64,000 nucleotides of DNA from Candidatus Caldarchaeum sp. (GTDB taxonomy: Archaea; Thermoproteota; Nitrososphaeria_A; Caldarchaeales; Caldarchaeaceae): the NCBI GenBank assembly GCA_038885755.1, contig JAVZZH010000001.1:160001-224000 (forward strand), in the 5' to 3' direction. Under the pieces are notes generated by a model. It ran no database searches and was not told the DNA's origin. It saw nothing but the letters and a program-made list of their open reading frames with translations. The translations under genes and the position numbers were made by a program. Shown here in pieces: positions 3,829 to 19,912 of the stretch (the first letter of the stretch is position 1; the number at the start of each line of letters is the position of its first letter).

Positions 3829-5154
3829 GTGGAACTGAGTGTGTTCAGTCTTATGACTAGGTCGTCAATATTCATGGAGAAGGCTCAGAAGTTTTTGATT
3901 ACGAGTATGGTTCGTAGAATTGAGCCGGTTGTTATCGAGCGTGCCAGTGGTGCATCGGTCTGGGATGTTGATGGCAGGGAGTATATTGACTGTTTTGCCG
4001 GGATTTCTGTAGTGAATCTGGGCCACTGTCATCCCGAAGTCGTAGACGCAGTTGTCGCCCAAGCAAAGAGGTTAGTCCATGCATGCGCCTACGTCTACTA
4101 TATTCCGGTAGTTGCTGAGCTGGCTGAGAAGCTGGCCGAGGTCGCTCCCAAGCCTTTAAGGAAGATGTTCTTCGGTAATAGCGGCGCAGAGGCCGTCGAG
4201 TGCGCGATCAAGCTTGCGCGGAAGTTCACCAAGCGATATGAGCTTATAGCGCTCATGTGCTCTTTCCACGGACGCACCATTGGAGCCCTCAGCGTCACTG
4301 GACAGTCTGGGAGGAGGAGGTATGATATGGGGCCGTATCTGCCTGGAGTATCCTTCGCGCTACCGCCATACTGCTATAGGTGCCCGTTCGGTAAGACATA
4401 TCCTGAATGCGACCTCCAGTGCGCAAGGTCCATACGCGACGTCATAGAATACTCTACTGGTAGGGGTGTTGCGGCCTTCATAGCCGAGCCGGTGCTCGGT
4501 GAGGGCGGCATCATCCCGCCTCCCCCAGAATACTTCAGGGTGGTCAAGGAGATCCTAGATGATTATGGGATACTCTTCATCTGCGACGAGGTTCAGACAG
4601 GCTTCGGGAGGACTGGCAAGCTCTTCGCGATAGAGCATTATGGAGTTGAGCCAGATATCCTGACCCTTGCCAAGGGAATAGCCAACGGGTTCCCGCTGGG
4701 CGCTTGCATGGCTAGAGACGATATTGGCAATGCCTTCGAGCCCGGCGACCATCTGTCAACCTTTGGAGGAAACCCTGTCTCAGCCGCGGCGGCGCTAGCG
4801 AACATAAACGTGATGCTGAGGGATAAGATTCCGGAGAAGACGGCAGAGAAGGGTGAACGTGTAATGAAGCGGCTTAACGAGATGAAGGAAGAGTATCCGA
4901 TCATAGGTGATGTCAGGGGGAAGGGATTGATGATAGGGATAGAGCTCGTCAGGGATAGGGAGAAGAAGACACCCGCGGTTGAAGAGACTAGGAGGATAAG
5001 AGACATGTGCAGGGAGAGAGGCCTGTTGCTGGGGTCGGGAGGCGTTAAGGAATCCGTCCTCAGAATCCAGCCACCACTAGTCATAACGGATGAACAAATA
5101 GAGAAAGCACTCGATATACTGGAATCCTCCGTGAAGGATGCGACCCGAGGGTGA
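3829..5154 (+). CDS. Class-III PLP aminotransferase (4-aminobutyrate/beta-alanine/acetylornithine-like)
   Basis: DVDGREYIDC, NSGAEAVECAIK, SFHGRT, FICDEVQTGFGRTG, LAKG (PLP Lys), STFGGNP. The true start may be ATG 3853. Confidence 0.93.
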   Translation: MELSVFSLMTRSSIFMEKAQKFLITSMVRRIEPVVIERASGASVWDVDGREYIDCFAGISVVNLGHCHPEVVDAVVAQAKRLVHACAYVYYIPVVAELAEKLAEVAPKPLRKMFFGNSGAEAVECAIKLARKFTKRYELIALMCSFHGRTIGALSVTGQSGRRRYDMGPYLPGVSFALPPYCYRCPFGKTYPECDLQCARSIRDVIEYSTGRGVAAFIAEPVLGEGGIIPPPPEYFRVVKEILDDYGILFICDEVQTGFGRTGKLFAIEHYGVEPDILTLAKGIANGFPLGACMARDDIGNAFEPGDHLSTFGGNPVSAAAALANINVMLRDKIPEKTAEKGERVMKRLNEMKEEYPIIGDVRGKGLMIGIELVRDREKKTPAVEETRRIRDMCRERGLLLGSGGVKESVLRIQPPLVITDEQIEKALDILESSVKDATRG

Positions 5155-5163
5155 GCAGCCCTA

Positions 5164-6660
5164 TTGAAAGAGGGCCAGCGTATAATATTCTCTGAATACT
5201 ATGGCCGTGTGAAACACTTCATCAACAACGAGTACGTAGAGCCAGAGTCTGACCATTATCACCCATCGTTCGACCCAGGACTGGGCAGTGTTATAGCCGA
5301 AGTCCCAACACTATCGTCTAAAGATGTTGACAGGGCTGTAAGCGCTGCGGCCAGCGCCTTCGGCCGGTGGTCAAACATACCCGTCTTCGACCGCCTACAA
5401 CACCTCATACGGCTCAAAACGCTTATTGAAGAGAGGATTGAAGATTTTGCCAGACTCCTTTCGCAGAACGTTGGCAAGACGATAAACGAGGCGCGGGCTG
5501 AGATGAGGAGGGTCCTTGAAGCCGTGGACTCCGCGCTAGGCCTACCACACCTAATGATGATGAATAGGAAGATAGTGAATCTGGCTAGGGCTGAGCCTGA
5601 GATAGACATGGAGTCTGTAAGGGAGCCTGTGGGCGTCTTCGCTATCATAACCCCCTTCAACTTCCCCATAATGATACCAATGTGGTTTGTCCCGATCGCA
5701 GTAACTCTCGGAAACACGGCGGTGGTGAAGCCAAGCCCTATAGACCCTGTCCCAATCACATTTTTCGCCGATCTGTTTAGACAGGCTGGCTATCCTCCGG
5801 GCGTAGTGAACGTCATCAACGGGGGTGGGCCCGGTGTAGAGGAGCTGGTGAAAAATCCGGAGGTTTCGGGCGTGTGCTTCGTAGGAACCACCTCGGTTGG
5901 CGAGAGAGTCTACTCCTCGGCGTGCTCCCATGGAAAGAGAGTTATTTGCCAGACCAGCGCCAAGAATCCTGTCGTCCTGATGCCCGACGCCACACCCCAG
6001 CCGACAATCGAGAACATCATAGGCGGTTTCTTCAACATGGCGGGGCAGCGCTGCCTAGCTCCCGGACTTCTCATCACCGTCGGCGACGCATACGACAAGT
6101 TTGTCGGCAAGATAGTGGAAAGAGCCTCAAAGATAAACGTGAACTACCCCCTCCTCGAAACCACGGATATGGGCCCCATGTCCTCGGGGAGCAATAAAGA
6201 GAGAGTGGTTAAAATGGTTGAGAGAGCGGTAGACGATGGGGCCAGACTTTTAATGGATGGGAGGGAGCCTTGCGTCGACGACAGATATTCCAGCGGATTC
6301 TACTTGGGGCCCATGATATTGGATGACTTGACACCGGGTATGGAGGTTGAGAAGGAGGAGGTCTTCGGCCCAGTCATCCCTATCGTTAGGGCATCCAGCT
6401 TCGAGGAAGCCGTTGAGATAGCCAACAACCGTCAATACGGCAACACAGGCACAATCTACACGTCTAGCGGGAAGTGGGCGAGGGAGTTTTCAAGGCGAAT
6501 ACAGGCAGGAAACATTGCAGTAAACATGGCGGTGGCACAGCCACACCAGTTCTTCCCATTCCCAGCCCGTAAGAAGAGCCACTTTGGACCACTGGCGGGA
6601 CAGACAGGTACGATAGACTTCTTCACCGACATGAAGGTAATAATGTATCGCTGGTGGTAG
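5164..6660 (+). CDS. mmsA: CoA-acylating (methyl)malonate-semialdehyde dehydrogenase-like ALDH
   Basis: ITPFNFPIMIPMW, KPS, AGQRCLA (catalytic Cys), EEVFGPV, FFPF...KKSHFG. The 'ELGG' glutamate is absent (CQTSAKN), as in MMSDH. Confidence 0.8.
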   Translation: MKEGQRIIFSEYYGRVKHFINNEYVEPESDHYHPSFDPGLGSVIAEVPTLSSKDVDRAVSAAASAFGRWSNIPVFDRLQHLIRLKTLIEERIEDFARLLSQNVGKTINEARAEMRRVLEAVDSALGLPHLMMMNRKIVNLARAEPEIDMESVREPVGVFAIITPFNFPIMIPMWFVPIAVTLGNTAVVKPSPIDPVPITFFADLFRQAGYPPGVVNVINGGGPGVEELVKNPEVSGVCFVGTTSVGERVYSSACSHGKRVICQTSAKNPVVLMPDATPQPTIENIIGGFFNMAGQRCLAPGLLITVGDAYDKFVGKIVERASKINVNYPLLETTDMGPMSSGSNKERVVKMVERAVDDGARLLMDGREPCVDDRYSSGFYLGPMILDDLTPGMEVEKEEVFGPVIPIVRASSFEEAVEIANNRQYGNTGTIYTSSGKWAREFSRRIQAGNIAVNMAVAQPHQFFPFPARKKSHFGPLAGQTGTIDFFTDMKVIMYRWW

Positions 6661-6689
6661 CCTGAATGCTTATCTCCACTGGGTGATGC

Positions 6690-7049
6690 GGCGGTCTCCG
6701 CCTCCCAGCCGGCTCGGAGACCGACAAAGCTCTGTCCACACCCGGCAGCGACTGATCCACATGCTCGTATGTCCGAGGGCTCTTGACTACAGCATCTACG
6801 TGAACCCCGCCTTTGTGGGGAGGCGTTGACGCCAAAGAAAGGATATCCCACGCTTAAAGGCATGCCAGCAACCTCCGCGACGTAGTAAGCAACGTCTTTG
6901 AGCTTCTTGATGCCGTCTTGTGTTTTCAAAACTCTGTAGCCCATTTTGAGAACAAGGCTGGGGATTATCTGCGTTAAGTCAGCTTTTCCACAACGCTCGC
7001 CCATAGTCCCCTGAACATGTCTAACACATTCAACCACGGCGACCATCAA
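6690..7049 (-). pseudogene. cimA: Citramalate synthase (CimA/LeuA family) internal fragment
   Basis: HVQGT-GERCGKADL..IIP.L.LKMGY in one frame and HKGGVHVDAVVKSPRTYEHVD...VSEPAGR in another; frameshifted and truncated. Confidence 0.8.
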
Positions 7050-7089
7050 GTAGGAAAGGGAACTAGGTTCTTGAAGCTGGAGGGAGGCC

Positions 7090-7330
7090 TTGGGGAGAAG
7101 ACTGGGAAAATGCTGCGAAGTCTTTTTCAGGCTTTTCGTGGAGATGGACTGTGAGCTGGCGGAGATAAACCCGCTAACGCCAACGTCCGACGGAAAGCTT
7201 CGGGCGATAGACTCTAAGGTGATACTGGATGAAAACGCTCTTTACAGACATCGAGAGTTCGCCGGACCGTCGGCGGGCTCAGGGCTTGAGGAGGAGACGC
7301 GTAAGCTTGGTTTGACCGCCGTCAGCATAC
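7090..7330 (+). pseudogene. sucC: Succinyl-CoA synthetase beta subunit (ATP-grasp) fragment
   Basis: LFVEMDCELAEINPL...DGKLRAIDSKVILDENALYRH is the hallmark SucC segment; both ends are missing. Confidence 0.8.
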
Positions 7331-7471
7331 GTCCATTTTCAGGCTCTATGACATGCACTACAAGCTTTCTCTCTTATCTTATTTGGGGCGGGGAACCGCG
7401 ATGATCCATGCCTGCGTAGTTTAAACCCTAGCACTGTTTTTGACAGCATGGCGACGAGGCTGTAGCTTGTT

Positions 7472-8302
7472 TTACAGTATTCCCATGTTGTAGGCAAACA
7501 GCAGGTAGACGAGCACGGATAGAATGACGATAAACATTGTTGTCAGAATGATATCGAATTTCTTAACTATTAATGTGCTATGATATCGTGCTGTTTTTGC
7601 ACCGCCGCCTCTTATTTGGCTGCTGATGTTCAGCACGTCAACATAGTAAACGATTTGCCGTGTAAGTGGTAGGATTACTGGCAATGCTTCCCGCGCTGCT
7701 TTTATTGGGTTGCGGGTTTTTGACCCCCATCCTCTCAGCCGCTGTGCTTTGGCAATGATGGATATGGTTCTGAAAAGGTCAGGCACGAATTTGAGAGCGA
7801 CGGTGACCACGTATATGACTTGGTATGGAAAGCGTAGGTATCTGAGAAGGAGGACGTAGTCGGTCATCGACGTTGTGTAGATGAGTGTTAGTGTTACCAT
7901 GGCTCCGAGGATAATGTGGCTGACATGCCCGAAAACCCAAAGGGCCGCGCCTGCTATGAGTTTAACATTGCCGATGAATGGAAAGGGGATTTCGAATAGA
8001 ACCTGTGAGACAAATTCTTTCGGCCATACTTTGAAGAGCGCTGGGTTGGCCTGCGCCACACCTAGGATGAAATATTCGATGGACCTGTAGGCGGCGGCTG
8101 GAACGGCTATGACAAGCCATTTGGGCGGTGTTTTGGCTATTATAAACAACGCTGTGATAACAGCCGCAAGAACCGCGAGATAGTATGGGTCATAGTAGAA
8201 GCTTACGAGCATTAAAAGCGAGATATACAAGGTGACACGGGGCAACGGGTTTAAACGGTGGAGGATTGTTCCCTTAGGTTCGTATTCAAACCACTGCGGC
8301 AA
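7472..8302 (-). CDS. ecfT: ECF transporter transmembrane T component
   Basis: LHRLNPLPR N-terminus; ALKFVP...AQRLRG and SQIRG (the two X-R-X coupling motifs); hydrophobic. Confidence 0.9.
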   Translation of the reverse strand: MPQWFEYEPKGTILHRLNPLPRVTLYISLLMLVSFYYDPYYLAVLAAVITALFIIAKTPPKWLVIAVPAAAYRSIEYFILGVAQANPALFKVWPKEFVSQVLFEIPFPFIGNVKLIAGAALWVFGHVSHIILGAMVTLTLIYTTSMTDYVLLLRYLRFPYQVIYVVTVALKFVPDLFRTISIIAKAQRLRGWGSKTRNPIKAAREALPVILPLTRQIVYYVDVLNISSQIRGGGAKTARYHSTLIVKKFDIILTTMFIVILSVLVYLLFAYNMGIL

Positions 8303-10024
8303 TCAGCTCACCTTAATCTGTTGTATGAATTCTTCCACTCTGAGAACGTCCGGCCTGAAACCCACGTCTGAAAGGTTTTGAGCAAGCTCCGTTATTTGTG
8401 GCGGCTTTAAAGAAGCCTTGTCAAGAATTTCTCTCTGAGAGAAAACTTCTCTAGGAGTACCGTCGAGTAAAATCTTGCCATCCGCCATGACTATAACGCG
8501 GTCGGCAAACTCTGAGACAAGCCGCCTATCATGGGTAATAATCACAAGGGATGTTCCCATGTTTTTGAGGTTTTTGATTATTTCCATCAACCTAAGAGAA
8601 TCTTTTCTGTCGAGACCTGATGTCGGCTCGTCTATGATTATTATCTTCGGCTCTAGGATGAGAATACTTGCGAGGGCTACGAGTGTGCGTAGGTATCTTG
8701 GCAGGTCTATTATGAGTTCTTTTTTTACATGCGGAATGCCGAGTAGATTTAAGGTGTTGTCGATGAGTTTTTCGATTTCTTTAGGTGAGTATCCGAGGTT
8801 TTTCGGGCCAAACGATAACTCATCTTCAACGGTTTTACTGAAGAGCATGTTGCTAGGATTTTGGAAAACATAGTTGATTTTCCGAACAACTTCTTTGGGG
8901 TCTGCTTTGATAACGTCCAATCCGAGGACGTTTATTTCGGCGTCTGGGTTTGTTGGTTTGTATACGCCCACGAGTGTTAGGGCCAAGGTTGATTTTCCAG
9001 AACCGTTCTGTCCAATAATCGCCGTCAACTCTCTTTCGTAGAGCATCAAGTCGACGCCATCCAAGGCACGAACACCGTTTGGATATACGTAGGTAATTCT
9101 CTTCGCTATCACTACTGGGTTGCCTCTTGCTTTTTGAAAGTTTTTCACACCTGTGTTTGGAATGATTTTCACCCGGCCCGATGAAATCAGTTTCCGCATC
9201 TCCTCTTCCGCGCCGTCCAAAGTTCCCCTAATCTTCGTTGTCAGACCTATTTCCCTCAGTCTTTCAAAAAGCTCTGCGACTTGAGGAGCTCCTACACCGG
9301 TGTATTTGAGACAGCTGTTTTCCACGGCTTCGTCAGGCGTGCCGTCGAAAATTATTTTCCCCTTGTCCAGAACAACAACTCTGTTTACGATGTTAAGAAC
9401 ATCCTCCAAGTCTGCACCGGATTCAGCAATTATACAGGTCATTCCATATCTTTTGTTCAAATCTTTTATGGCTTCGAGAACGAGGCTTTTGCCGATCGGG
9501 TCTAGCATGGAGATGGGCTCGTCTAACGCTAAAACCTTGGGCCTCATGGCTAAAACACCTGCGATGCTCAGAGCCTGCTGCTGCCCTCCACTCAACTCTT
9601 TCGGATGCCGGAGCAAAAGTGGTTTAAGCCTTGTCGCGGAAACAGCATATTCAACTCTTTCTTCTATTTCGTGAAGCGGCATGCCAAGGTTGATCGGGCC
9701 GAATGCGACGTCGTCTTTCACGGTTAGGCTGAATACCTGCACGGTCGGGTCGTCTAAAACAAGTCCTACCGTAGGAGCCATCTCTGCTACTAAATAGCTT
9801 CTTGGATTTTTTCCTGCGACCGATATTTCCCCCTCTATCTTGGCCGGGATGACGTTTGGGATCAATCCGTTGAGCAGGAAAAGAAGAGTTGTTTTTCCAG
9901 ACAGCAGGGGGCCCACCAATGCGACGAATTCACCCTCTTCGACGGATAAGCTCACATTGTCGAGTGCTTTTTCACTCCTATGTAAATAGTTTACACTTAC
10001 GTTTTTCAACTCAATTAGCGGCAT
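8303..10024 (-). CDS. ecfA: ECF transporter duplicated (A-A') ATPase
   Basis: Two ABC domains: GPLLSGKTT / LSGGQQQ / LDEP and GQNGSGKST / IDEPTSGLD / THD. DDVAFGP and DELSFGP are ECF-type motifs. Confidence 0.93.
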   Translation of the reverse strand: MPLIELKNVSVNYLHRSEKALDNVSLSVEEGEFVALVGPLLSGKTTLLFLLNGLIPNVIPAKIEGEISVAGKNPRSYLVAEMAPTVGLVLDDPTVQVFSLTVKDDVAFGPINLGMPLHEIEERVEYAVSATRLKPLLLRHPKELSGGQQQALSIAGVLAMRPKVLALDEPISMLDPIGKSLVLEAIKDLNKRYGMTCIIAESGADLEDVLNIVNRVVVLDKGKIIFDGTPDEAVENSCLKYTGVGAPQVAELFERLREIGLTTKIRGTLDGAEEEMRKLISSGRVKIIPNTGVKNFQKARGNPVVIAKRITYVYPNGVRALDGVDLMLYERELTAIIGQNGSGKSTLALTLVGVYKPTNPDAEINVLGLDVIKADPKEVVRKINYVFQNPSNMLFSKTVEDELSFGPKNLGYSPKEIEKLIDNTLNLLGIPHVKKELIIDLPRYLRTLVALASILILEPKIIIIDEPTSGLDRKDSLRLMEIIKNLKNMGTSLVIITHDRRLVSEFADRVIVMADGKILLDGTPREVFSQREILDKASLKPPQITELAQNLSDVGFRPDVLRVEEFIQQIKVS

Positions 10025-10050
10025 TTCTGTAAAAAGAAAAAAAGATTTGA

Positions 10051-10878
10051 TTATTTAGTTGCAACAGCTGGTTTCCCTGCAGCTTGGACGAGCCTCGACT
10101 CGTAGTAGAAGCTCCCTATCAAAGTGCCGATGAACTGTGCGACAAAGCTTGATATGACGAATCCAGCGGGGCTGATGGCCCAAGCTACGTTAGCCAAGGC
10201 AGCTTCAAACGGGTTGTTTGTGAAATAGTTTGTGATAACCCATCCCGAGAAGTGTACACCCATGAATACAAACGCCATCAAAACCGTCAACAGATTCCTG
10301 GCAGTCGCTCCCAACGGCCTGCTGCGAACCACGTACCAAAAGATTATCGACGAAATAGCCCAGATGCCGCCGTCCATCAACGCGTAAGCTACGACGATGT
10401 TTGGCGTGGCAACCCATGGAGCCAGCCCAAGCGCGTAGCGGAGGATAAAGGCAACTGCTGTTCCGAGAAAAGCCGTGAAAGGCCCGAAATACACAGCCGC
10501 AAACGCCGTCACCAAGGCGACTGTATCTATGTTTATTGGTCCTGGAAGCCCTGCGACGGTAGCCACAGCCGCGACAATAGCTGACGCTGATAGAAAATAC
10601 GGCGAAGAAACGGAATATCTACCTTCAGGTACATATTTTCCCGGCGGCGCAAGCCATTCCTTCTTAGTTGAGAAAAGTGAAATCGCCACGAATCCCGGAA
10701 TTGTGTAGATAAGAATGGCGTTCATGTAGAAGAGAGCCTGACGGGTTGGCGAATGGCTCACTCCCCAGACAGGAGATGGAGTGTTTATGGCGAGGTTGAT
10801 GAGAATGCCGACGACGGCGCTGACGACAGCGACTAAGACCAATAGTGTGTTCCTACCTTTCGCAACCAGCCTGCTCAT
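10051..10878 (-). CDS. Putative ECF substrate-specific (S) component with an N-terminal extension
   Basis: First gene of the ecf operon; strongly hydrophobic; AxxxA-type helix (SAIVAAVATVA) and AAVYFGP motif. Confidence 0.65.
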   Translation of the reverse strand: MSRLVAKGRNTLLVLVAVVSAVVGILINLAINTPSPVWGVSHSPTRQALFYMNAILIYTIPGFVAISLFSTKKEWLAPPGKYVPEGRYSVSSPYFLSASAIVAAVATVAGLPGPINIDTVALVTAFAAVYFGPFTAFLGTAVAFILRYALGLAPWVATPNIVVAYALMDGGIWAISSIIFWYVVRSRPLGATARNLLTVLMAFVFMGVHFSGWVITNYFTNNPFEAALANVAWAISPAGFVISSFVAQFIGTLIGSFYYESRLVQAAGKPAVATK

Positions 10879-11260
10879 GACAGCAGTATTTTAATGCTGC
10901 TACTGGTTATTAAATTTTATTACCTAATACGTAGCATGGTCCTGATGATGCCTTGAATATTCGTGATAACCAGTCTAGACTCTTTCAGAAGGGAGAAATC
11001 ATCCAATCTTCAGATATCCTCCTCGTCTGGGCACTACCTGATACGTGGAAATTAAGCTTTATCCGGTAGGCCTTTGCCGTGGCTGCTCTTCAGAATACAC
11101 GTATTTCATCGACTACCCCCTTCCTTTGGAGGTATCGGGATTGGGTGTATTCAAGGGCTGCCGTAAATATAATGGACGAGGCCAGCAGGGAGAGGAGCCT
11201 AGCTAGGTTCCCAACATTCCTTATGAGGATGCTTTTGGCATGAGTAGGCGTATTACCCTG

Positions 11261-11363
11261 CTGACATTCCTGATAAGCGATGTTTTCAGGATGAGAGGGT
11301 GTCTAGATGGGATGGTGTTTTGAAAGAAGAAGACGTCATAGAAAGCCTTATCCGGATACTGCC
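11261..11363. mobile_element. ~100-bp MITE-like remnant sharing ends with the IS6 element at 3431-3790
   Basis: Left end ..TCCTGATAAG (11268-11277) and right end CTTATCCGGATACTGCC (11347-11363) carry the same asymmetric end cores as the IS6 remnant. Confidence 0.55.
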
Positions 11364-11408
11364 TGACTGTTCTGCATGTTTATATTTAGCATATGAAAAT
11401 TTCAAGCT

Positions 11409-12443
11409 GTGAAGGCGGCTCTTCTTTTCGGGCCTTCAGACCTTCGAATCGGCGATGTTCCTGTTCCGAAAATCAGCGATGACGAAGTTTTGGTTAAAGT
11501 CAAAGCTATTAGTGTGTGTCCTAGTGATGTTAGAACTTTCCGAGGTGTTTACAAAAGCAGAATTTTCGAATACGGTTTGGACAGCTACGGGATGTCGGGA
11601 CATGAATGGGCCGGTGAAATCCTTGAGGTCGGTCCAAGAATAAAGCATTTACAGCCCGGCGACAAAATTGTCCCCGAAATAATCATTCCATGCGGCTTGT
11701 GCAAGCTGTGCAGACGTGGTCTAACAAACCTATGCATACGGAAAAAACCCGTTTTGCGCGGATATGCCGAATACGCTGTTGCGAAAGGATTTTACAGCTA
11801 CAAAGTTCCTAAAAATGTGAGTATTCAGGAAGCAGCTTTGACCGAACCTGTCGCCGTCAGTATAAGAGCTAACATGCGAACAAACTGTCTGCCGGGCGAC
11901 TTGGTTTTGGTTGTGGGAGCTGGGCCGATGGGCTTGCTAAACCTGATGGTGGCGAAAAAATTCGGCTTCAGGGTGGTTGTTTCGGAAATAAATTCCGAAA
12001 GGCGGCGGATAGCCCGCGAACTGGGCGCGGATGCCGTGGTCAACCCGGCTGAGGAAAAGCTGGAAGACGTGATAAAGTCCGAGGGTGATGGACTGGGGGC
12101 TGACGGAGTGATTATGGCGACGGGGGCCAAGGCTGCTATCGAATCCGCCGTGAAAGTAGTGAGGCCATTCGGAACAGTAGTATTGTTCGCATCCACCTAT
12201 CCCAAAGAAGACATCGTCCTAGACCCTAACACAATACACTACGGCGAAATTAATATTACCGGCAGCTTCGACCACTTGCCAGTGGATATGGAAAGAGCGT
12301 TAGTGTTCATGGAGAAAAAGGAAATAGACGTGATGAAGATCATCTCAAAGTTTTTTGAACTTGAAAATTTGGAGGAAGCGTTCATCTACTGGGAAAAAAG
12401 TGCTGGCTTGAAACCAATGATTTTAATGAGCGAATCGCCATGA
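11409..12443 (+). CDS. Zn-dependent polyol (sorbitol/L-iditol-type) dehydrogenase, MDR family
   Basis: CPSD, GHE, structural-Zn CGLCKLCRRGLTNLC, EP, GAGPMG, IHYGEINITGS. Confidence 0.88.
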   Translation: MKAALLFGPSDLRIGDVPVPKISDDEVLVKVKAISVCPSDVRTFRGVYKSRIFEYGLDSYGMSGHEWAGEILEVGPRIKHLQPGDKIVPEIIIPCGLCKLCRRGLTNLCIRKKPVLRGYAEYAVAKGFYSYKVPKNVSIQEAALTEPVAVSIRANMRTNCLPGDLVLVVGAGPMGLLNLMVAKKFGFRVVVSEINSERRRIARELGADAVVNPAEEKLEDVIKSEGDGLGADGVIMATGAKAAIESAVKVVRPFGTVVLFASTYPKEDIVLDPNTIHYGEINITGSFDHLPVDMERALVFMEKKEIDVMKIISKFFELENLEEAFIYWEKSAGLKPMILMSESP

Positions 12444-13876
12444 TTTTAGGCTTGGATGTGGGCACCGGCAGTGTGAAAGCTGTTGCATTGTCCGACGAAG
12501 GTAAGGTCGTTTGGCAGTCACATCGCGACCTCCCCAACGTAGTTGCTGACGGGGAAAAGGTTGAGTTCGACGCTGAAATATGGTATGCTAGAAGCATTGA
12601 TTTACTGAGAGAATTCGCAAGCAAGTTCAAGCCACGCGACCTCACGCTTTGCATCGGTGGACAGGCACCTAGCATCGTTCCCGTGGACAGAAATGGTCGC
12701 CCTCTTCACCATGCCTTAGTTTGGATGGATGGTCGTGCTGTTGCTGAGGCTGAAAAACTGCGAAATTTAACCGGCGAAGACGTCGACCCGTTCACGGCTG
12801 AATCTAAGCTTCTGTGGTTCATGAACAACCTTCCTTCTGTTTATAAGAAAACATTTTGTTTTTTACACGCCTTCGATTTCGTCGCTTTCCGGCTGACCGG
12901 TTCGGCGACCGTGGGTTTGCTCGACGAGCAGTACTACACGTGGGAAAGCATTCCTTACTGGAAACCGGAACACCTCAGCATGACGGAATTTGAGTTGGAG
13001 AAGCTTCCGGAGCCAAGGCTGATAGGAGATGAAATCGGCCCTGTTAAGGAAAGCGTGGCAAAAATGCTGAATATTCCATCGACTACTGTTATTCAGGGAA
13101 CGGCTGATTTCGCCCACAGCATCGTCGGAGTCGGGGCTGTTAAACCAAGCGTGGCCATGGACCATGGCGGAACTTCACAGGGCTTTGACCTATGTTGGCA
13201 TGAAGAGCTAAGACCTTCGAAGAGAGAATTCAACTGCGTCCGACATATTGTGAGAGGTTTTTGGAACATCAGCGGTGTAATGAACACTACAGGAGCTGTG
13301 TTAAGATGGTTCCGCAACAATTTCTACCCACCTGAATCATCGTATACCTTAGTCGATGCTGAGGCAGCAAAATGTGAAAACGTGCAGCTCATAGTCCTAC
13401 CGTATTTTCAGGGTGAAAGAACTCCAGTCTGGAACCCTTATGCTCGGGGCGTCTTCTTCGGTCTTCAGCTTAGACACGGCCGTGGTGATGTTGCGAGAGC
13501 TATTATGGAGGCGACGGCTTATGGGTTGAGGCGGATTGTCGAATTCATTAAAAAAGCGGGCGGCCGGCTTGACGAGCTACGTGTTGCCGGAGGTCAGGGA
13601 AACAGCGACCTCTGGAACCAGATAAAAGCCGACGTATTAGGGGTCAAAGTTATCAAACCCTCGATAAGCGACGCAGCACCTCTTGGCGCAGCCTTGGTCG
13701 GAGCTGTCAGCAAACAAATCTACAAAGACTACAGCGAATCAGCCGAGAAAGCAGTCGTAATCGAAAAAACCTTCAACCCCAACCCAACGAAAACAGAAAC
13801 ATATGACAAAAAATACGAAACATACATTGAACTATACGAAGCCGTAAAACATCTATTCATCAAACTCGACCACTAA
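12440..13876 (+). CDS. FGGY-family carbohydrate kinase (xylulokinase-like)
   Basis: ILGLDVGTGSVKA, WMDGRA, PYFQGERTP.W, RAIMEATAY, AGG...WNQIKAD. ATGA overlap with the dehydrogenase. Confidence 0.92.
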   Translation: MILGLDVGTGSVKAVALSDEGKVVWQSHRDLPNVVADGEKVEFDAEIWYARSIDLLREFASKFKPRDLTLCIGGQAPSIVPVDRNGRPLHHALVWMDGRAVAEAEKLRNLTGEDVDPFTAESKLLWFMNNLPSVYKKTFCFLHAFDFVAFRLTGSATVGLLDEQYYTWESIPYWKPEHLSMTEFELEKLPEPRLIGDEIGPVKESVAKMLNIPSTTVIQGTADFAHSIVGVGAVKPSVAMDHGGTSQGFDLCWHEELRPSKREFNCVRHIVRGFWNISGVMNTTGAVLRWFRNNFYPPESSYTLVDAEAAKCENVQLIVLPYFQGERTPVWNPYARGVFFGLQLRHGRGDVARAIMEATAYGLRRIVEFIKKAGGRLDELRVAGGQGNSDLWNQIKADVLGVKVIKPSISDAAPLGAALVGAVSKQIYKDYSESAEKAVVIEKTFNPNPTKTETYDKKYETYIELYEAVKHLFIKLDH

Positions 13877-14382
13877 CCGGTATGGGCGTTTGACCAAAAC
13901 TCCTACCAGCTGAAATGCTCTAGTGAAAAACTATGACGGAGTTGTTGTATCTTTTCACTTTAAAAACGTTTAGAAAATAAGATCAAGTAGCCCGCCGAAA
14001 AAACCAAATAAGCCCTACCGGTGAGCTTGTGTTGCGACGGATTATGTTTGTTTCGTTTCTAGTTCTTCTCTTTCTGCTTTCCATTAAACATGTCTCTAGG
14101 TCTGCCGCCACTTGTCTGGGTCCTGCATTCTTTTAACGGCTTCGAGTACAATTCAGTCGATAAGCACGATTTTTTGGGTCTGCTGATAAGCTCGGTCTTG
14201 TTCCACCGCTACCGTGGAGGTTAGGACTTTTGATGTGGTTTTGTTCTGTGCAGCTCCACCCGCCGTTGTTGTCGCGATGTTGGCGACAGTTTTGGCTATC
14301 CTCAGCCCTGTCTAGGCCCATCCAGTCCCAGCCGCTGTCACGAATAATACAGCCAAAACGGTCTCGGACCACGGGGCAATGC

Positions 14383-15147
14383 CTAGGTCAGCGGTAAAAG
14401 CTTTTCGGGTGAAAACCCTTCATGGATAATGCTGTTGAGGGCCTTTGTGATTTTTTCAGGGCTGGGGTGTTGGAAGATGTTTCTACCAAAAGCAACCCCC
14501 GCTCCTCCGGCGGATATGCTTTCGTAAACCATCTGCAAAACCTCCGAGTCCGACTCCACAAACTCGCCTCCCAACACAACCACTGGGACAGGGCATGTGC
14601 TGACAACATACCTGAAGCTTTCCACACTGCCGGTGTACATCGTTTTTATGAAGTCGGCTCCATACTCAGCGCCTATCCTGGCGATCTTAGCGATTTCAAC
14701 GGCCGAGGTCATGGCTGGCTTGCCGGGATACATCTCAGCTAGAACGGGGATTCCGAAATCTCCAGCTGCGACACACAGGGCCCACAGTGTCTCAAGCTCT
14801 TGTCGCTCGTTCTCGCCGCCAAATTTGACGAAATATTTTACCGCATCGGCTCCATGGTTTGAAGCTGCTTTGACACTCTGCGGTATTGTCGAGGGGGATC
14901 TGTCTTGAAGGTTCAGTATCCAGCCCAAGTTTCTCCTCGCTAGAGAGGGTGCGTACTCCTTTAGCAAACCTAGATTCGTCATCACTGCGTCGACCCCTGC
15001 TCCCACGACTTTAGCGAGAATCTCCGAAGGCTTCTCAGAACCCTTAACAGGCCCCATGAAAGAACCATGGTCGAACGCAAAGATGAGGCTGCGTCCATCG
15101 GCTTGGAATATGCGTTTAAGACGAATAGCTTTACCGGGGTAGCTCAC
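14383..15147 (-). CDS. DhnA-type class I aldolase (FBP aldolase/LsrF/ADH synthase family)
   Basis: GKAIRLKRIF, FAFDHG, EMYP, GADFIKT (Schiff-base Lys), GVAFGRNIFQ. Confidence 0.9.
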   Translation of the reverse strand: MSYPGKAIRLKRIFQADGRSLIFAFDHGSFMGPVKGSEKPSEILAKVVGAGVDAVMTNLGLLKEYAPSLARRNLGWILNLQDRSPSTIPQSVKAASNHGADAVKYFVKFGGENERQELETLWALCVAAGDFGIPVLAEMYPGKPAMTSAVEIAKIARIGAEYGADFIKTMYTGSVESFRYVVSTCPVPVVVLGGEFVESDSEVLQMVYESISAGGAGVAFGRNIFQHPSPEKITKALNSIIHEGFSPEKLLPLT

Positions 15148-15922
15148 AGCGATGCCAGGGTGTTATTACGACTTTTAATACTTTTCCTCCGCAAGCGGGT
15201 TTGCAGAGCTTCTACAATTCTCTCCAGAGGCATTCTGTGGGTTATGAGAGGTTTGACTTTTACAAAACCTCGCTGTATTAGCGTCAAGGCTGTTTTGACG
15301 TCTTTTTTAGTTCCCCCGCAAGTGCCCGTGATGACTAGTCGATGCTTATCTCATTTTTACGATGGGTTGGCGAAAGAGCCGGCAATTCCTCTTGTTTGAA
15401 GACTCGGCGAATCAGGCCGGGGCTATCCTTCTCGGGCATGCTCGAGACCGCCTCTCATATGCTGACAGCGTCCTCTAGTGGTCTTATCCTCTCCTCAAGC
15501 TCGGGTGAGAAGGGGGCATAGCCGAACATCCTCAGAGCCTTGTCCGCCTTCTCGAACTCGCTCCTAACCATCTCAGGCGGCGGAAGATAATAGATTTTCT
15601 CGACGTCCGAGTTATGCTCAATTAAAAGCTTATTCACGCCAGCAGATTAGCATCTCACGGCCCCGTCCTGTCGTGGTCGCTTCGGGTTGGAGGGTGATTA
15701 CGCCCCGGCCTAGGTTGACCTAGGCCCTAAGTTGAAGACGATCCTGCTGGTTAGTGCGGCCATTTTGTCGAGGTATAGGCTTGGCTTTGTCATCATACAG
15801 GCTCAGAGCAGAAGCCCTGCGGCGGATAGACTGCGGCTGGCCATCTTTATGGTTCGAGCTCAGCCATCTCAGCTAAATCTTAAATCCTCTAGATGTTTGA
15901 CTATGGGTTAGTGGCTTGAAGC

Positions 15923-16639
15923 GTGGAGGCCGAGGATAGTCTCAAACGACAGTTGATGAACACGATAGCCGGCGAGGTGATTTTTTCGCCGAGGCCTGGG
16001 GATGCTTTGAAGAAGTGGAGGTTGTTGTTTGAGGAGAGTCAGAAGAACTTGGCCAAGGCCATGGGTGTGGCCTCTTCTGTTTTGAGCGATTACGAGAAGA
16101 ACCGCCGGAAGTCCCCGGGCACGGAGTTCATCAGAAAGTATGTCAACGCCTTGATTAGGTTGGACGAGGCGAAGGGCGGGCTGCACATCAGGAAGTACGC
16201 CGGCTCCGTCAGGGATTTGTCCGGTGTCGTGCTGGGTATTGCTGAATACACCTCACCCAGGACGCTGGATGAGGTCGCTGACGCCATTAAGGGTGTTTGG
16301 CTTGCTGGGCAAGGGTTGAGGGATTCCTATGTCTACGGATACACCGTGGTGGATAGTCTTCGTGCGATAAAGAACCTCGACTCTCACGATTTTCTAAGGC
16401 TGTTCGGCGGAAACTCTGTCAGGGTTGTGGTGTTCACAAACGTCTCCAGAGGTAGGTCTCCCATCATAGCCGCCAAGATCTTCCCGATAAGGCCTCGGAT
16501 GATAGCTATTCACGGGCCTCGGGGAAAGGAGGATGTCGACCCGTTCGCCGTGGAGCTGGCTGCGTCTGAGGGCATACCCTACGTCCTGTCTCTCCACAAA
16601 ACGGTTGAAGACATACTGGACGGGCTCAGCTCGTTGTAG
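15923..16639 (+). CDS. Archaeal XRE-HTH transcriptional regulator (COG1709-like)
   Basis: IAGEVIFS..PG..LKKWR..F...Q..LA..MGV..SV.SDYE..RRKSPG; C-terminal YGYTVVDS and FTNVSRGRSP. Confidence 0.85.
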   Translation: MEAEDSLKRQLMNTIAGEVIFSPRPGDALKKWRLLFEESQKNLAKAMGVASSVLSDYEKNRRKSPGTEFIRKYVNALIRLDEAKGGLHIRKYAGSVRDLSGVVLGIAEYTSPRTLDEVADAIKGVWLAGQGLRDSYVYGYTVVDSLRAIKNLDSHDFLRLFGGNSVRVVVFTNVSRGRSPIIAAKIFPIRPRMIAIHGPRGKEDVDPFAVELAASEGIPYVLSLHKTVEDILDGLSSL

Positions 16640-17063
16640 GAGCGTCGGCTCTCTTGACGAGCCTAGCGTTCAGTATGCCGTTTACATACCTCAGCTCTCT
16701 CAAGATAGCCTCGTAGGGTAGCTTGACAGTCCGCCTAAAACCCATCCCGCCTTTGAGCACCAGCTTCCTCCCAAGCAGCTCTACCTTGACGTTGCTCTCA
16801 GGGCCGGGGACTTGCGCCGTGAGGTCGACCACATCCCCCTCATGTCTTATTTCGAGCAGGAAGTCATCCCACGACGGTGAGGCTAGGCTCTTGTTAAAGG
16901 CTTTGAACCAGTAGACAGCAAGCCCGGCTGCTAGGCCTCCGAGAACAAGGCCTAATAGCCCTGTCTGGAGACGCAGCATGAACGAGAGCACCGCGACTCC
17001 GACTAGGAACAGTAGGAGATAGCCCAACCCGCTGAACCCTGTTTTCTTGACGTCTCCGCTCAA
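16626..17063 (-). CDS. Membrane-anchored Hsp20/alpha-crystallin-like protein
   Basis: Two N-terminal TM helices, then AQVPGPE..VKV...L...G...F.R.V.LP...Y.NGILN (alpha-crystallin pattern). Confidence 0.65.
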   Translation of the reverse strand: MSGDVKKTGFSGLGYLLLFLVGVAVLSFMLRLQTGLLGLVLGGLAAGLAVYWFKAFNKSLASPSWDDFLLEIRHEGDVVDLTAQVPGPESNVKVELLGRKLVLKGGMGFRRTVKLPYEAILRELRYVNGILNARLVKRADAPTTS

Positions 17064-19855
17064 CCCACCACCACCCGTATGTACCTCAGCACAGTTATAC
17101 CCGACTGCTGGTACACCGCACCTAAATATAAGCTATCGCCAGAAACCCAGTGGACTATAATCGCCCCGTAGTTTTTCCAAGACTCCGTAAATGACTGGAA
17201 AGTCTGTCTAATTTTCTCGAAGTCCCTTTCGACGGTGTAGTTCAGGACCTCGTGCTTGTAGACTATGTTGGCGTTGACCGTGTCGACGGCTTCGCCTCCC
17301 AGCCCGAGCTCCGTCAGCAGCCTTCTGAGGTTTTCAAGCTTGGCTTCACGTGTTAGGGCGGCGGATGGGGGAGGTGGTTGCTCGCCGAGCAGCTTCAAAA
17401 GATAGTTTCGGAAGGCTTCGTCTATTGTATTGCCAAGACCCACGTAGTAAAGGCCTGTGAACGCAGCGCCCACAACCGCTATGGTTCCGATCTGCGTGAC
17501 CACTCCCTCACCCTCTCTTGCTGTGTAAACAGGTATGACGTAGACAGGATGGTCGCCGACCTCGTAGAAGATTGTTTCACCGATTCTGGGTGAGGCTAGC
17601 AGGGTGCTTAACGTTCTGAAGGCGGGGTCTCTCTGAAGGGCCTGAAGAGCCGCTGAGGGGCCTAGGAGCTTGATGGGCGACTCGGGGTCTACCTTGTAGA
17701 AGTACATCTCACCCGTGTGGGGATAATCGTTGCGCACAACGGCGTAGCCGGCCAAGTTAAGCCCCCTAGCCCCCCTCAGCTCGAGCGACAGAATGCCGAT
17801 GAACTCGAGGTTGTCCATGTTGGGCAGCCTAGCTTGAACGAAGTAGACGTCCACGCCTTGAGGAATTTCGTAGAACTCTCGGGCCTGTATGAATATAGCC
17901 GGGTCGCTGACGTGGTAGAGGGAGAACTGCCTTATCTGGTATGAGAAGAGCTCTGCAGGATACCTCAGCTGATTCCCAAGCCACGATGGAACATCCTCCT
18001 TCACGTAGTCGGAGTAAACTGTTTTGAACAGCTTGGTGAAAAAGTCGTTGCCCAGCGTAATCACCTGTATCGAGCCATCGTAGACGTCCACCAGAGCTAT
18101 GCCGACGAACCTTACGAGAGGGTTCTCCCGAGACCACGGAGTCTTGTCTGTTGGCAGGGAGATGATGAGCGGCATCATCCAGTAGGTTTTGACGCCGTCG
18201 GTCACCGGAAACATGTCCACGTAGTCATTTCCGAAGAAGTATGTGAAGTAGGGGAAGAGCAGCGATACTCTGTCGTGGACGTCCCGATACCTTAGGAGGG
18301 TTATGCTGCGGTCCGGGTAGCTGAGGAAGAAGGTGATGTCGTACAGCCAGCTAAGCGGGGGCCCTACCACAACTCCGCCCTTGCCGTCGTAGACGGCTCT
18401 ACCTATCTCGTCGGGCGTTTCCTTCCCCTGTATGATGGCGGCCCATGTCGATGAGAAGAGGCTTCGGGCTCCACCCTCTCCGTAGTATATTCTCCTCTCC
18501 TTGAAGAACTGGGAGCTGTCGACAACTTCCCCCGTGTGGGCGTTGAGCATCAGGAATCCTTGGGGGATGTGAGTGTAGACGAGATGCATGTTGTACCATA
18601 GGTCGGCGCTCGTCACCGTGGCCGGCAGGACGGGTTTCATCGAGGCGCTCCAGTAGAGCGTGCCGTTGAACCGCAGTATGTCCGAGTCTTCAAAATCTAT
18701 GTAGGGGATGAGGCCGATCTCGGGCCTGAGTTTGGCGAAGGCTGCGCTCCAGTCCCACAGCCTTGTTCGTTCAAGTATTTTCATGCTCGACCGGGTGATC
18801 GAGTCGACTTCAAACTCCTGTATCTCCATCTTGCTGAAGTTGTAAGGGAGGACCTTCACGTTCAAATCTGACAAGTATCTGTTGACCGTGATCTCCTGCA
18901 TCACATAGGGACCTCTGTACTCGATCTTCTGAGCGTCTGCGATTGTGTTCTGAACAATCACTATGGAGGCTGTTGACAGAGCGATGATGATAAGCAGCCC
19001 CGCTCTGAGGTATATGTTGTTCAACAACCTTCTTCCAGAGTAGTCTAAGTATCCGTAGAAGGCTAGAACTCCTGAAGCAAGGAAGCATGCGATTATCAGG
19101 ACACGTGTGTTGTAGTCGATGTAGGTGCTGAAGAAGAGGTTGAAACCGGTCCACGCGAGACCCAGCGCAGCGAGGAATTGTATTGTCGAGGCTTTAATTG
19201 TTATCATGCCCGTCTCGCCGAAAGAGATCAAGGCTTTTGTGAAAACCTTGACTATGTTAGTCAACCCGACTAGAAGCAGCAGCCTCACGCCGATGGCGTT
19301 GAATAGAGGAGGTATCAGGAGTATGAGGGCTGGAGAAGACTGGATCACTGCCTCTGCGCCAGTTGTCTCGCCGGGCTTGAAGGATGTGAAGGGAAGTAGG
19401 AAGATTCGGTATATCTCGCCCATGCCTGTCTCCCAGCCGTTTAGCCAAGCTAGGAAAGACATGCCGAAAACGCTGTTTGAAAACAGGAAGGTTCCGAGCA
19501 GGAGCTTCGTCAACTGCCATGCTGTGAAGGTCTGAACCGAGAGGCGCAACCTTTCGAAGTCAAGCATTCTGGTTGAAAAACCACCACGGAGCATGATGAG
19601 TAATGATCGTAGCGCCCATATCGTCGCCGATTTCCTCGACCTGAAATCCAGCCTGAACAACGCTATGAACGAGAGCACGAGGCCTCCCACGATTGAGAAG
19701 TAGAATGGTCTTATGAAGAGGTCTCCGAACTCGACGATGTTTAGGTAGACGTTCAGGAATGAGCTTCCCGCCAGACCGACCAGAAGGAACGCCACCAAAG
19801 CAACGGCCAACACCGCTGCAAACCTCGTCCTTCTACCCCTAGACACGTACACCAA
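17060..19855 (-). CDS. UPF0182-family membrane protein
   Basis: N-terminal TM bundle; RLWD, HLVYTH..G, RIYYGE, VDVYDG, LRYPAELF are UPF0182 motifs. Confidence 0.85.
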   Translation of the reverse strand: MVYVSRGRRTRFAAVLAVALVAFLLVGLAGSSFLNVYLNIVEFGDLFIRPFYFSIVGGLVLSFIALFRLDFRSRKSATIWALRSLLIMLRGGFSTRMLDFERLRLSVQTFTAWQLTKLLLGTFLFSNSVFGMSFLAWLNGWETGMGEIYRIFLLPFTSFKPGETTGAEAVIQSSPALILLIPPLFNAIGVRLLLLVGLTNIVKVFTKALISFGETGMITIKASTIQFLAALGLAWTGFNLFFSTYIDYNTRVLIIACFLASGVLAFYGYLDYSGRRLLNNIYLRAGLLIIIALSTASIVIVQNTIADAQKIEYRGPYVMQEITVNRYLSDLNVKVLPYNFSKMEIQEFEVDSITRSSMKILERTRLWDWSAAFAKLRPEIGLIPYIDFEDSDILRFNGTLYWSASMKPVLPATVTSADLWYNMHLVYTHIPQGFLMLNAHTGEVVDSSQFFKERRIYYGEGGARSLFSSTWAAIIQGKETPDEIGRAVYDGKGGVVVGPPLSWLYDITFFLSYPDRSITLLRYRDVHDRVSLLFPYFTYFFGNDYVDMFPVTDGVKTYWMMPLIISLPTDKTPWSRENPLVRFVGIALVDVYDGSIQVITLGNDFFTKLFKTVYSDYVKEDVPSWLGNQLRYPAELFSYQIRQFSLYHVSDPAIFIQAREFYEIPQGVDVYFVQARLPNMDNLEFIGILSLELRGARGLNLAGYAVVRNDYPHTGEMYFYKVDPESPIKLLGPSAALQALQRDPAFRTLSTLLASPRIGETIFYEVGDHPVYVIPVYTAREGEGVVTQIGTIAVVGAAFTGLYYVGLGNTIDEAFRNYLLKLLGEQPPPPSAALTREAKLENLRRLLTELGLGGEAVDTVNANIVYKHEVLNYTVERDFEKIRQTFQSFTESWKNYGAIIVHWVSGDSLYLGAVYQQSGITVLRYIRVVVG

Positions 19856-19912
19856 ATCTAGACACTGGGAAGAGGGTCGAACGGCGTGTATTATAGCTTA
19901 TTCCAAATCAGG

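Follow-up and report, generated by a model that had tools for sequence, protein, structure and literature searches.

What does a transporter of the energy-coupling factor (ECF) class import when its genes stand beside those of a polyol-type dehydrogenase, a carbohydrate kinase, and an aldolase? This question is raised by a locus at positions 7472 to 15147 of a 64,000-nt stretch of DNA (the window) from Candidatus Caldarchaeum sp., which we analyzed by open reading frame (ORF) listing and by scans with Pfam and NCBIfam profiles. The window is part of a metagenome-assembled genome (MAG) that is 86.5% complete, and the gene absences reported below are to be read against this figure. We propose, with a probability of roughly 55%, that this locus serves the dedicated ECF import of a small polyhydroxy compound, which would be trapped by a kinase and cleaved by an aldolase to dihydroxyacetone phosphate (DHAP).

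The transporter genes lie on the reverse strand and encode a putative S component, a membrane protein of 275 amino acids recognized by its fold and not by a profile (10051-10878); a fused EcfA-A' with two ABC ATPase domains (8303-10024; 573 amino acids); and EcfT, the transmembrane coupling component (7472-8302; 276 amino acids). Only 26 nt separate the stop codon of the S gene from the start of the A-A' gene, and the A-A' and EcfT genes are 0 nt apart. This is the complete, dedicated ECF operon announced in a preliminary description of this DNA, and the presence of S, A, and T in one operon is the feature of group I transporters. EcfT matched the CbiQ family (PF02361) with 55.5 bits, compared to a cut-off of 25, and carries two Arg motifs, LRG and IRG, that are invariant in seven homologs. 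The fused ATPase contains two ABC_tran stretches and scored 415.9 bits with TIGR04520 (cut-off 315) and 411.5 bits with TIGR04521 (cut-off 330). Both features of ECF membership, a T family protein with Arg coupling motifs and two ECF-type ATPase domains, are present in these proteins. The order S-AA'-T recurs in eight further loci (L006, L007, L010, L011, L013, L018, L042, and L043), and we are confident that the window genes form an ECF complex.

The S protein itself matched no Pfam or NCBIfam profile, and no Pfam family even at an E value of ≤1; the known S families (PF12822, PF07155, BioY, ThiW, QueT, and others) were among those not matched. Thus, its assignment as an S component needed a separate demonstration. 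An AlphaFold (AF2) model built from the family alignment reached a predicted local distance difference test score (pLDDT) of 96.5. Its best PDB neighbors in Foldseek are ThiT, TmRibU, and FolT (probability 0.98-1.0; E value 0.08-0.4), and the matches with a probability of ≥0.9 are ECF S components (ThiT, TmRibU, FolT, RibU 3p5n, and the S chain of 4hzu), aligned over approximately 183 columns with TM-scores of 0.43-0.60 (normalized to the target). The protein therefore has the six-helix S-fold by structure and not by sequence family. The core of this fold comprises approximately residues 90-275, and the N-terminal 90 residues or so form two additional helices; a loop in this extension (G39, S41, S43, P44, R46, and Q47) is strongly conserved. 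The predicted S-EcfT complex scored 0.75, compared to 0.00 for the best control, a pass that may reflect only the likeness to solved ECF complexes; the mark applied was attained by 58 of 80 solved complexes and by 2 of 110 mismatched pairs. Contact agreement between the docking runs was at least 91%, and the partner pLDDT at least 84. The closest predicted contacts join S residues 96-105 (SASAIVAAVA, a small-xxxA helix) to EcfT residues 161-173, a contact of the H1-CH2 type, as reported for ECF complexes in excerpts of PMC5037267. Among 53 aligned family members, weak matches were obtained to PF12822 (ECF_trnsprt) in eight, to PF07155 (ECF-ribofla_trS) in six, and in nine to 5TM-5TMR_LYT, a family with an S-fold according to an excerpt of PMC11109136. 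The nearest clusters in the ESM Atlas were likewise S components, all with scores of 0.85-0.88, which we treat as leads only. On the joint evidence of the fold match, the two-helix extension, the predicted docking to EcfT, and the weak family matches, we accept the 275-amino-acid protein as the predicted S component; the ECF transporter to which it belongs is of the dedicated type (group I), its two ATPase domains being fused.

Relatives of this protein are rare. Only 12 were found among 5.8 billion clustered proteins, and a profile search of 1.84 billion gave 42 representatives. Members with a named source belong to Ca. Caldarchaeum, Bathyarchaeia, Odinarchaeota/Asgardarchaeia, Nitrososphaerota, and Thermoprotei, and they are labeled "hypothetical" in every source that names them. 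This is an archaea-restricted S family with a two-helix extension, new with respect to Pfam and NCBIfam, the 2009 comparative-genomics lists of S components lying outside the comparison.

Divergently from the S gene and separated from it by 530 bp (10879-11408), the forward strand carries a gene for a zinc-dependent medium-chain dehydrogenase/reductase (MDR) of the polyol/threonine dehydrogenase type (11409-12443; 344 amino acids; ADH_N and ADH_zinc_N domains) and a gene for an FGGY carbohydrate kinase (12440-13876; 478 amino acids), whose reading frames overlap at an ATGA (12440-12443). A gene for a DhnA-type class I aldolase of the DeoC family (14383-15147, reverse strand; 254 amino acids) converges on them from downstream. 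The preliminary description had recorded the overlap, the divergence from the ECF genes, the converging aldolase gene, and six intact genes, and our data agree on each point, all six being full length in the ORF listing and the profile scans. The divergent intergenic region contains A/T-rich boxes, possibly TATA boxes, approximately 25 to 35 nt ahead of both start codons. A sigma-70 promoter scan was disregarded as irrelevant for archaea, and an ORF at 14133-14372 appears to be non-coding. An Rfam scan of positions 6500-16500 detected no riboswitch at an E value of ≤1, the sole match being a sub-threshold snoRNA-like one.

Whether the enzyme genes belong to the transporter was addressed at 16 distinct loci carrying an S homolog, the window included, with neighbors counted by tblastn and all-against-all clustering of the neighboring genes. 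An FGGY kinase gene lies within 5 kb of the ECF genes in 11 of these loci (window, L006, L007, L008, L010, L011, L013, L015, L018, L042, and L043). The five loci without a visible kinase gene comprise L002/L009, L012, and L014 (1.0-1.5 kb long), L016 (cut at the S gene), and L017, which at 20 kb is the only locus truly lacking it. At a threshold of 70% identity, the S proteins fall into eight lineages (34-71% identity), and every lineage has a kinase-bearing locus; an MDR gene occurs in six of the eight and a DhnA gene in five. Gene order differs between loci: apart from divergent arrangements, L043 has FGGY-S-AA'-T on one strand, and in L018 and L042 the kinase gene follows that of EcfT. The kinases at these loci are of at least four types. 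Counted by locus, MDR genes are present near S in eight, with a ninth of 25% identity in L017, and DhnA genes in six. A reciprocal search returned the window copies as best matches in the window genome for the MDR and DhnA proteins of the other loci, with moderate margins. An FGGY gene beside S in 11 of 16 loci, with one true exception, argues for more than chance, and the transporter is very probably coupled functionally to the kinase. The preliminary description had envisaged that the linkage might turn out to be unique to one genome, or that S homologs might sit in vitamin-salvage contexts. Our survey revealed eight lineages and no salvage context, and no vitamin biosynthesis or salvage gene recurs among the neighbors of S.

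Two of these loci add to the picture. In L042 (G417:C6), a second, tandem ECF set lies at 13144-20000, 3 kb from the first S-AA'-T-creatininase module. It comprises genes for an MDR, an FGGY kinase, a 179-amino-acid Oxidored_molyb protein, a fused EcfA-A', EcfT, and an S component of the RibU type (PF07155, 37.3 bits; cut-off 26.7), the ECF genes standing directly behind this other MDR-FGGY pair. The ECF-MDR-FGGY wiring is therefore not confined to the new S family, and a fifth kinase type, in addition to the four or more paired with that family, is paired with a RibU-type S. In L017 (G014:C9, 4991-10423), the S homolog, 91% identical to that of L018, has no A-A'-T of its own. A QueT-type S gene accompanied by a fused EcfA-A' gene lies 2 kb upstream of it, and there is no FGGY gene within 10 kb; this may reflect module sharing or decay.

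The S module is patchily distributed. It was found in 5 of 61 relatives, with four strong matches among 401 genomes of the phylum, and in 3 of 81 and 1 of 81 genomes around two other carriers, which suggests an accessory, mobile trait. Of the 15 S-matching genomes in the phylum set, 11 score only 24-44 bits and probably contain other S families. An S match in G050 (L005/L019), situated inside a 712-amino-acid frame, was dropped as unrelated.

The MDR is most similar in the PDB to the sorbitol dehydrogenases 3qe3 and 1pl6, and a ketose reductase was also matched. Its catalytic zinc site, C37/H65/E66/E146, aligns with the sites of sorbitol dehydrogenases, and the structural Cys4 lobe (Cys95/98/101/109) is present. 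With the Cys-His-Glu triad, the distal Glu, and a Rossmann domain, it has the features of a polyol/threonine-type zinc MDR. It remained below the NCBIfam equivalog cut-offs, scoring 167.7 bits with tdh (cut-off 458) and 165.3 bits with IolM (cut-off 450).

The kinase contains both FGGY domains at full length (FGGY_N, 87.8 bits; FGGY_C, 117.5 bits), and residues 1-469 align with Escherichia coli XylB (2itm). On the XylB profile TIGR01312, it reached 248 bits, compared to a cut-off of 380; scores with GntK, LsrK, GlpK, AraB, FucK, and RhaB were lower, and no NCBIfam equivalog cut-off was passed. The catalytic Asp of XylB is kept. At substrate-side positions, compared with 2itm and 5vm1, the window kinase has GQAPS in place of GQMHG and GTSQGF in place of GTSGVYF; kinases of its type carry the motifs GQ[AG]PS, DF[AW]H, and DHGGTSQGFDLCW, and the XylB structures GQMHG, GDNAA, and GTSGVYF. 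Such motif positions are treated as specificity-determining in excerpts of an FGGY family study (PMC3245297). The TIGR01312 score and the replaced XylB motifs rule out a canonical xylulokinase, and judged by its motifs and scores the protein appears to be an FGGY enzyme of a distinct subfamily. FGGY is single-copy in the 1.33-Mb window genome, and the subfamily is as rare as S, with identities of 100, 75, 66, and 63%, followed by approximately 20 clusters at 41-47% and then by values of ≤37%. Several of the 41-47% clusters come from contigs equal in length to S-bearing ones and probably identical to them.

The aldolase scored 128.2 bits with DeoC (PF01791), and its best PDB matches are MJ0400 followed by LsrF. 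The Lys of its FIKT motif aligns with those of IVKT in MJ0400 and IIKT in LsrF and is presumably the Schiff-base Lys; fold family and conserved Lys place the protein among DhnA-type class I aldolases. With the ADH synthase subfamily PRK07226, it reached 229.7 bits, just under the cut-off of 241. The genome's true ADH synthase, at 302.6 bits, is encoded on contig C2 in a row with aspartate-semialdehyde dehydrogenase (asd) and DHQ synthase II (G000 C2:125647-128501; L035 3648-6502). Given this copy and the sub-cut-off score, we rejected an ADH synthase (AroA') identity for the window aldolase, which is thus an extra paralog. The C2 genes indicate that the organism makes aromatic amino acids via 6-deoxy-5-ketofructose-1-phosphate (DKFP) and ADH.

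The genomic background bears on the part played by the aldolase. The window genome yielded neither a ribulose-phosphate 3-epimerase nor a convincing transketolase, so that a pentulose 5-phosphate would be left without an obvious exit. The aldolase is therefore the likely exit of the pathway, via an intermediate resembling a ketose 1-phosphate.

RNA evidence consists of assembled contigs from two metatranscriptome libraries of one study. An identical contig of 913 nt covers the S gene (9955-10867), a contig of 1182 nt from a strain approximately 96% identical spans the A-A'/S junction, and others map to the EcfT, A-A', MDR, FGGY, and DhnA genes. Cover is interrupted in places, e.g., at 11018-11304, and we place no reading on these gaps. 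One related-strain contig (run X8) joins 12758 back to 12151 within the MDR and FGGY genes, which could be an assembly artifact or a rearranged copy.

In the route that we propose, an S component of the new family, as part of a dedicated group I importer with EcfT and the fused EcfA-A', would capture outside the cell a small carbon compound with several hydroxyl groups, such as a polyol, a ketose, or something closely derived from these. The loaded S would dock on EcfT and topple, and ATP hydrolysis by the fused A-A' would reset the cycle. The cognate FGGY kinase would trap the compound in the cytoplasm, the co-translated MDR would turn a secondary alcohol into a ketone either before or after phosphorylation, and the DhnA aldolase would split the keto-phosphate into DHAP and an aldehyde. 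Substrate class, order of the enzyme steps, and cleavage products are those that we infer. The preliminary description had envisaged an ECF system for a sugar alcohol or a polyol-bearing compound that feeds such a pathway. The link to the kinase has proved to be conserved, whereas the series from polyol through ketose and ketose phosphate to cleavage is still only inferred, because the kinase lacks the XylB signature and hydrolases accompany the module in most relatives. A free polyol or ketose is tentatively put forward as the substrate, at clearly less than even odds.

Several observations weigh against this proposal. The Foldseek E values of the S model are weak, and S matches no S-component profile. 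Between most lineages, the MDR proteins are 34-41% and the DhnA proteins 35-43% identical, so that orthology is not firm. Missing pentose phosphate pathway genes in a MAG of this completeness are no proof of absence, and the RNA-library contigs may stem from DNA carry-over and indicate presence only. ECF systems are high-affinity, low-capacity importers of micronutrients, which suits a trace precursor better than bulk carbon. A creatininase-family hydrolase is encoded in six of the loci and TRZ/ATZ amidohydrolases in seven, in operons with ECF or kinase genes. These hydrolases are not explained by a plain polyol or ketose, which raises the possibility of cyclic or nitrogen-bearing substrates.

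Following this line, the family substrate might be a polyhydroxy compound that is cyclic or contains nitrogen; candidates would be cyclitols, lactams or lactones of sugars, and heterocycles bearing a ribosyl or ribityl group. The creatininase-family hydrolase and the TRZ/ATZ amidohydrolase would open its ring or deaminate it before or after phosphorylation, and the Caldarchaeum locus would be a trimmed form for the opened or a simpler compound. A creatininase-family gene is part of the S-AA'-T operon in L013 and L042 and accompanies the FGGY gene in L010, L011, and L015, and two amidohydrolases of the PRK07213 type exceeded their cut-off of 294 with scores of 350 and 349 bits. Hydantoinase-like genes are found near four loci and genes of the xanthine dehydrogenase (XDH) family also near four, among them the window. 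The MDRs score on IolM (165-173 bits) about as on tdh, and the creatininase-family proteins reach 68-95 bits on IolN, which we take to be the ring-cleaving hydrolase of the Thermotoga inositol route. However, these values are far under the respective cut-offs of 450 and 245, and for the creatininase-family proteins the creatininase and MftE models give better scores than IolN. On the available DNA, L006 and L043 show FGGY and ECF genes only. Moreover, the window genome has an intact ECF-MDR-FGGY-DhnA set, yet neither a creatininase-family gene nor an amidohydrolase of the PRK07213 type above cut-off was found in it. We consider a ring-opening or deaminating route doubtful for the family.

Less probable still is salvage of a trace precursor instead of catabolism, e.g., uptake of a 6-deoxy-ketohexose that is phosphorylated at C1 and oxidized at C5 to DKFP. 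DKFP is the substrate of ADH synthase in the archaeal pathway to aromatic amino acids, and with asd, ADH synthase, and DHQ synthase II on C2, the genome needs this compound. The window aldolase is the nearest paralog of ADH synthase, the MDR matches galactitol-1-phosphate 5-dehydrogenase and sorbitol dehydrogenases, which oxidize the penultimate carbon, and uptake at micronutrient scale suits the character of ECF systems. The FGGY family, according to excerpts of PMC3245297, includes the 6-deoxy-ketose 1-kinases RhaB and FucK; the window kinase, however, scores low on both (96.8 bits on FucK, 21.8 bits on RhaB). The hydrolases at other loci are left unexplained. The module is patchy among the relatives, although the need for the pathway is presumably common. 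In sum, DKFP salvage is quite unlikely.

A further reading is an Lsr-like system, with an LsrK-like kinase and an LsrF-like DhnA protein, that acts on 4,5-dihydroxy-2,3-pentanedione (AI-2/DPD) or on a diketo-pentose of similar kind formed by heat. It would follow the same logic of transporter, FGGY kinase, and DhnA-type enzyme, and the aldolase has LsrF structures as its second-best PDB match. Scores of 141.1 bits on LsrK and 155.5 bits on LsrF are, however, far under the cut-offs of 528 and 297 and do not place the proteins in the Lsr families, the aldolase being nearer to ADH synthase and MJ0400 and the kinase to XylB and GntK. The Lsr pathway has no step for an MDR, and no LsrG-like gene was noticed in the loci, no search having been aimed at LsrG. 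On these scores, an Lsr-like function is very unlikely.

As for ordinary vitamin uptake, riboflavin can be set aside on the genome's own gene content. Lumazine synthase and DHBP synthase were not found in it, a separate S component of the RibU type (PF07155, 76.7 bits) is encoded at G000 C4:50496-51188, and RibK, the archaeal CTP-dependent riboflavin kinase, lies in the window at 59430-59795, so that the organism is probably a riboflavin auxotroph relying on ECF uptake. With riboflavin salvage already served by this S component and RibK, the new S is not needed for it, and riboflavin was ruled out as its substrate. A second ECF-type ATPase gene pair, approximately 35% identical to the window A-A', is located at G000 C1:501189-502830 (L036), flanked by genes for proteins of 335 and 265 amino acids without NCBIfam match, and the RibU-type S may use it as a shared ECF module. 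That the window transporter is an ordinary vitamin or metal importer with a functionally meaningless neighborhood of sugar enzymes, as might be argued from the micronutrient nature of all characterized ECF substrates (in excerpts of PMC5037267), the weak PF07155 matches of distant S family members, and the missing riboflavin synthesis genes, is very unlikely in view of the FGGY synteny across eight divergent S lineages and several gene orders, the existing riboflavin salvage, and the absence of recurring vitamin genes beside S and of a riboswitch at the locus.

The remaining neighbors of the S genes include F420-type LLM oxidoreductase genes in three loci. The XDH-family gene of the window (22023-24398) encodes the large subunit of a molybdenum enzyme without adjoining genes for FAD and FeS subunits; homologs with these subunits occur near the ECF module in L011 and L013, and a cut homolog occurs in L016. 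In L007, an MtmB-family (monomethylamine methyltransferase-like) gene without internal stops is found near the ECF module at 4526-5908, set among SsnA-like amidohydrolase, nitroreductase, and creatininase-family genes.

Upstream of the locus, positions 3829-6660 of the window encode a class III aminotransferase followed by an aldehyde dehydrogenase resembling CoA-acylating methylmalonate/malonate-semialdehyde dehydrogenases (TIGR01722, 419 bits; below the cut-off of 448.5). Such pairs are typical of beta-alanine or beta-aminoisobutyrate breakdown. The pair could take up the aldehyde released by the DhnA aldolase, and it does not recur at other S loci. The preliminary description had called the region around the locus otherwise decayed, and we found fragments that fit this statement in part. 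ORF fragments at 6456-7049 and 7090-7404 are 71% and 68% identical to parts of citramalate-synthase-like genes at C2:249-251 kb; they appear to be what is left of a duplicated stretch lying between EcfT and the aldehyde dehydrogenase gene. The C-terminal fragment of a lyase lies at 1221-1805. The preliminary description had also stated that no sugar ABC transporter is nearby. An ABC system does occur at 26.5-29.2 kb, the nearest other one in the window; its binding protein is of the NMT1 type and not of the sugar type.

In the literature that we searched, which did not extend to the founding comparative ECF survey or to PMC7478625, where both 'ECF transporter' and 'xylulokinase' occur, no paper linked ECF transporters to FGGY or other sugar-type kinases or to polyols. 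ECF systems appeared there as micronutrient importers only, with no sugar, polyol, or cyclitol among their substrates, and nothing was found on a Caldarchaeum xylulokinase with an ECF transporter. It is tempting to speculate, at slightly less than even odds, that the loci represent a class of archaeal ECF importers for carbohydrate-like carbon compounds, in which each S paralog has its own FGGY kinase. If this were the case, ECF transporters would not be limited to vitamins and metals, and in thermophilic archaea they could replace binding-protein-dependent ABC importers as the entry to a catabolic or precursor-salvage pathway ending in a DhnA aldolase. A conserved ECF-kinase-dehydrogenase-aldolase module would broaden the ECF substrate range and give a name to an S family hitherto labeled hypothetical. 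Caldarchaeales, Bathyarchaeia, and Asgard-related archaea, known largely from MAGs, would gain a route by which to scavenge an organic compound in their hot-spring habitats. As a compact and self-contained unit, the module lends itself to direct testing.

Among known transporters, the window operon resembles YkoEDC of Bacillus subtilis, described in excerpts of PMC5037267 as a group I (dedicated) ECF system with a fused double ATPase. Both systems have genes for S, a fused two-domain ATPase, and T side by side and share the S-fold, and a small-xxxA-type helix of the window S is predicted to touch a coupling helix of T. The window S differs in belonging to no described S family and in its extension of approximately 90 residues, which contributes two helices, compared to the one extra helix of NikM in the same excerpts. 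Further differences from group I systems are the lack of a riboswitch at the window locus and the carbohydrate-type enzymes that take the place of vitamin genes as neighbors.

The enzymes invite comparison with catabolic operons. In bacterial polyol operons, such as Pseudomonas mtl and Rhodobacter smo, genes for a polyol dehydrogenase and an FGGY xylulokinase accompany those of an ABC importer that depends on a binding protein. The window locus likewise unites an importer, a polyol-type dehydrogenase, and an FGGY kinase; in contrast, its importer is of the ECF type without a binding protein, its kinase lacks the XylB signature, and a class I DhnA aldolase is present where no pentose phosphate exit was detected. 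The inositol route of Thermotoga maritima (IolG, IolM, IolN, and IolO) shares the combination of an MDR and a creatininase-family hydrolase with L007, L010, L011, L013, L015, and L042; the window genome, without a creatininase-family gene and with Iol scores far under the cut-offs, differs from it, and the Thermotoga route reportedly lacks both an FGGY kinase and a DhnA aldolase and relies for uptake on an ABC importer with a binding protein. With the Lsr system (LsrACDB, LsrK, LsrG, and LsrF), the window locus has in common a transporter, an FGGY kinase, and a DhnA-family enzyme that releases, or in the window would release, DHAP; it differs in the class of transporter, in scores far below the LsrK and LsrF cut-offs, and in having an MDR in the place of LsrG. 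By analogy, the window locus would work like the polyol operons and the Lsr operon while being a member of neither.

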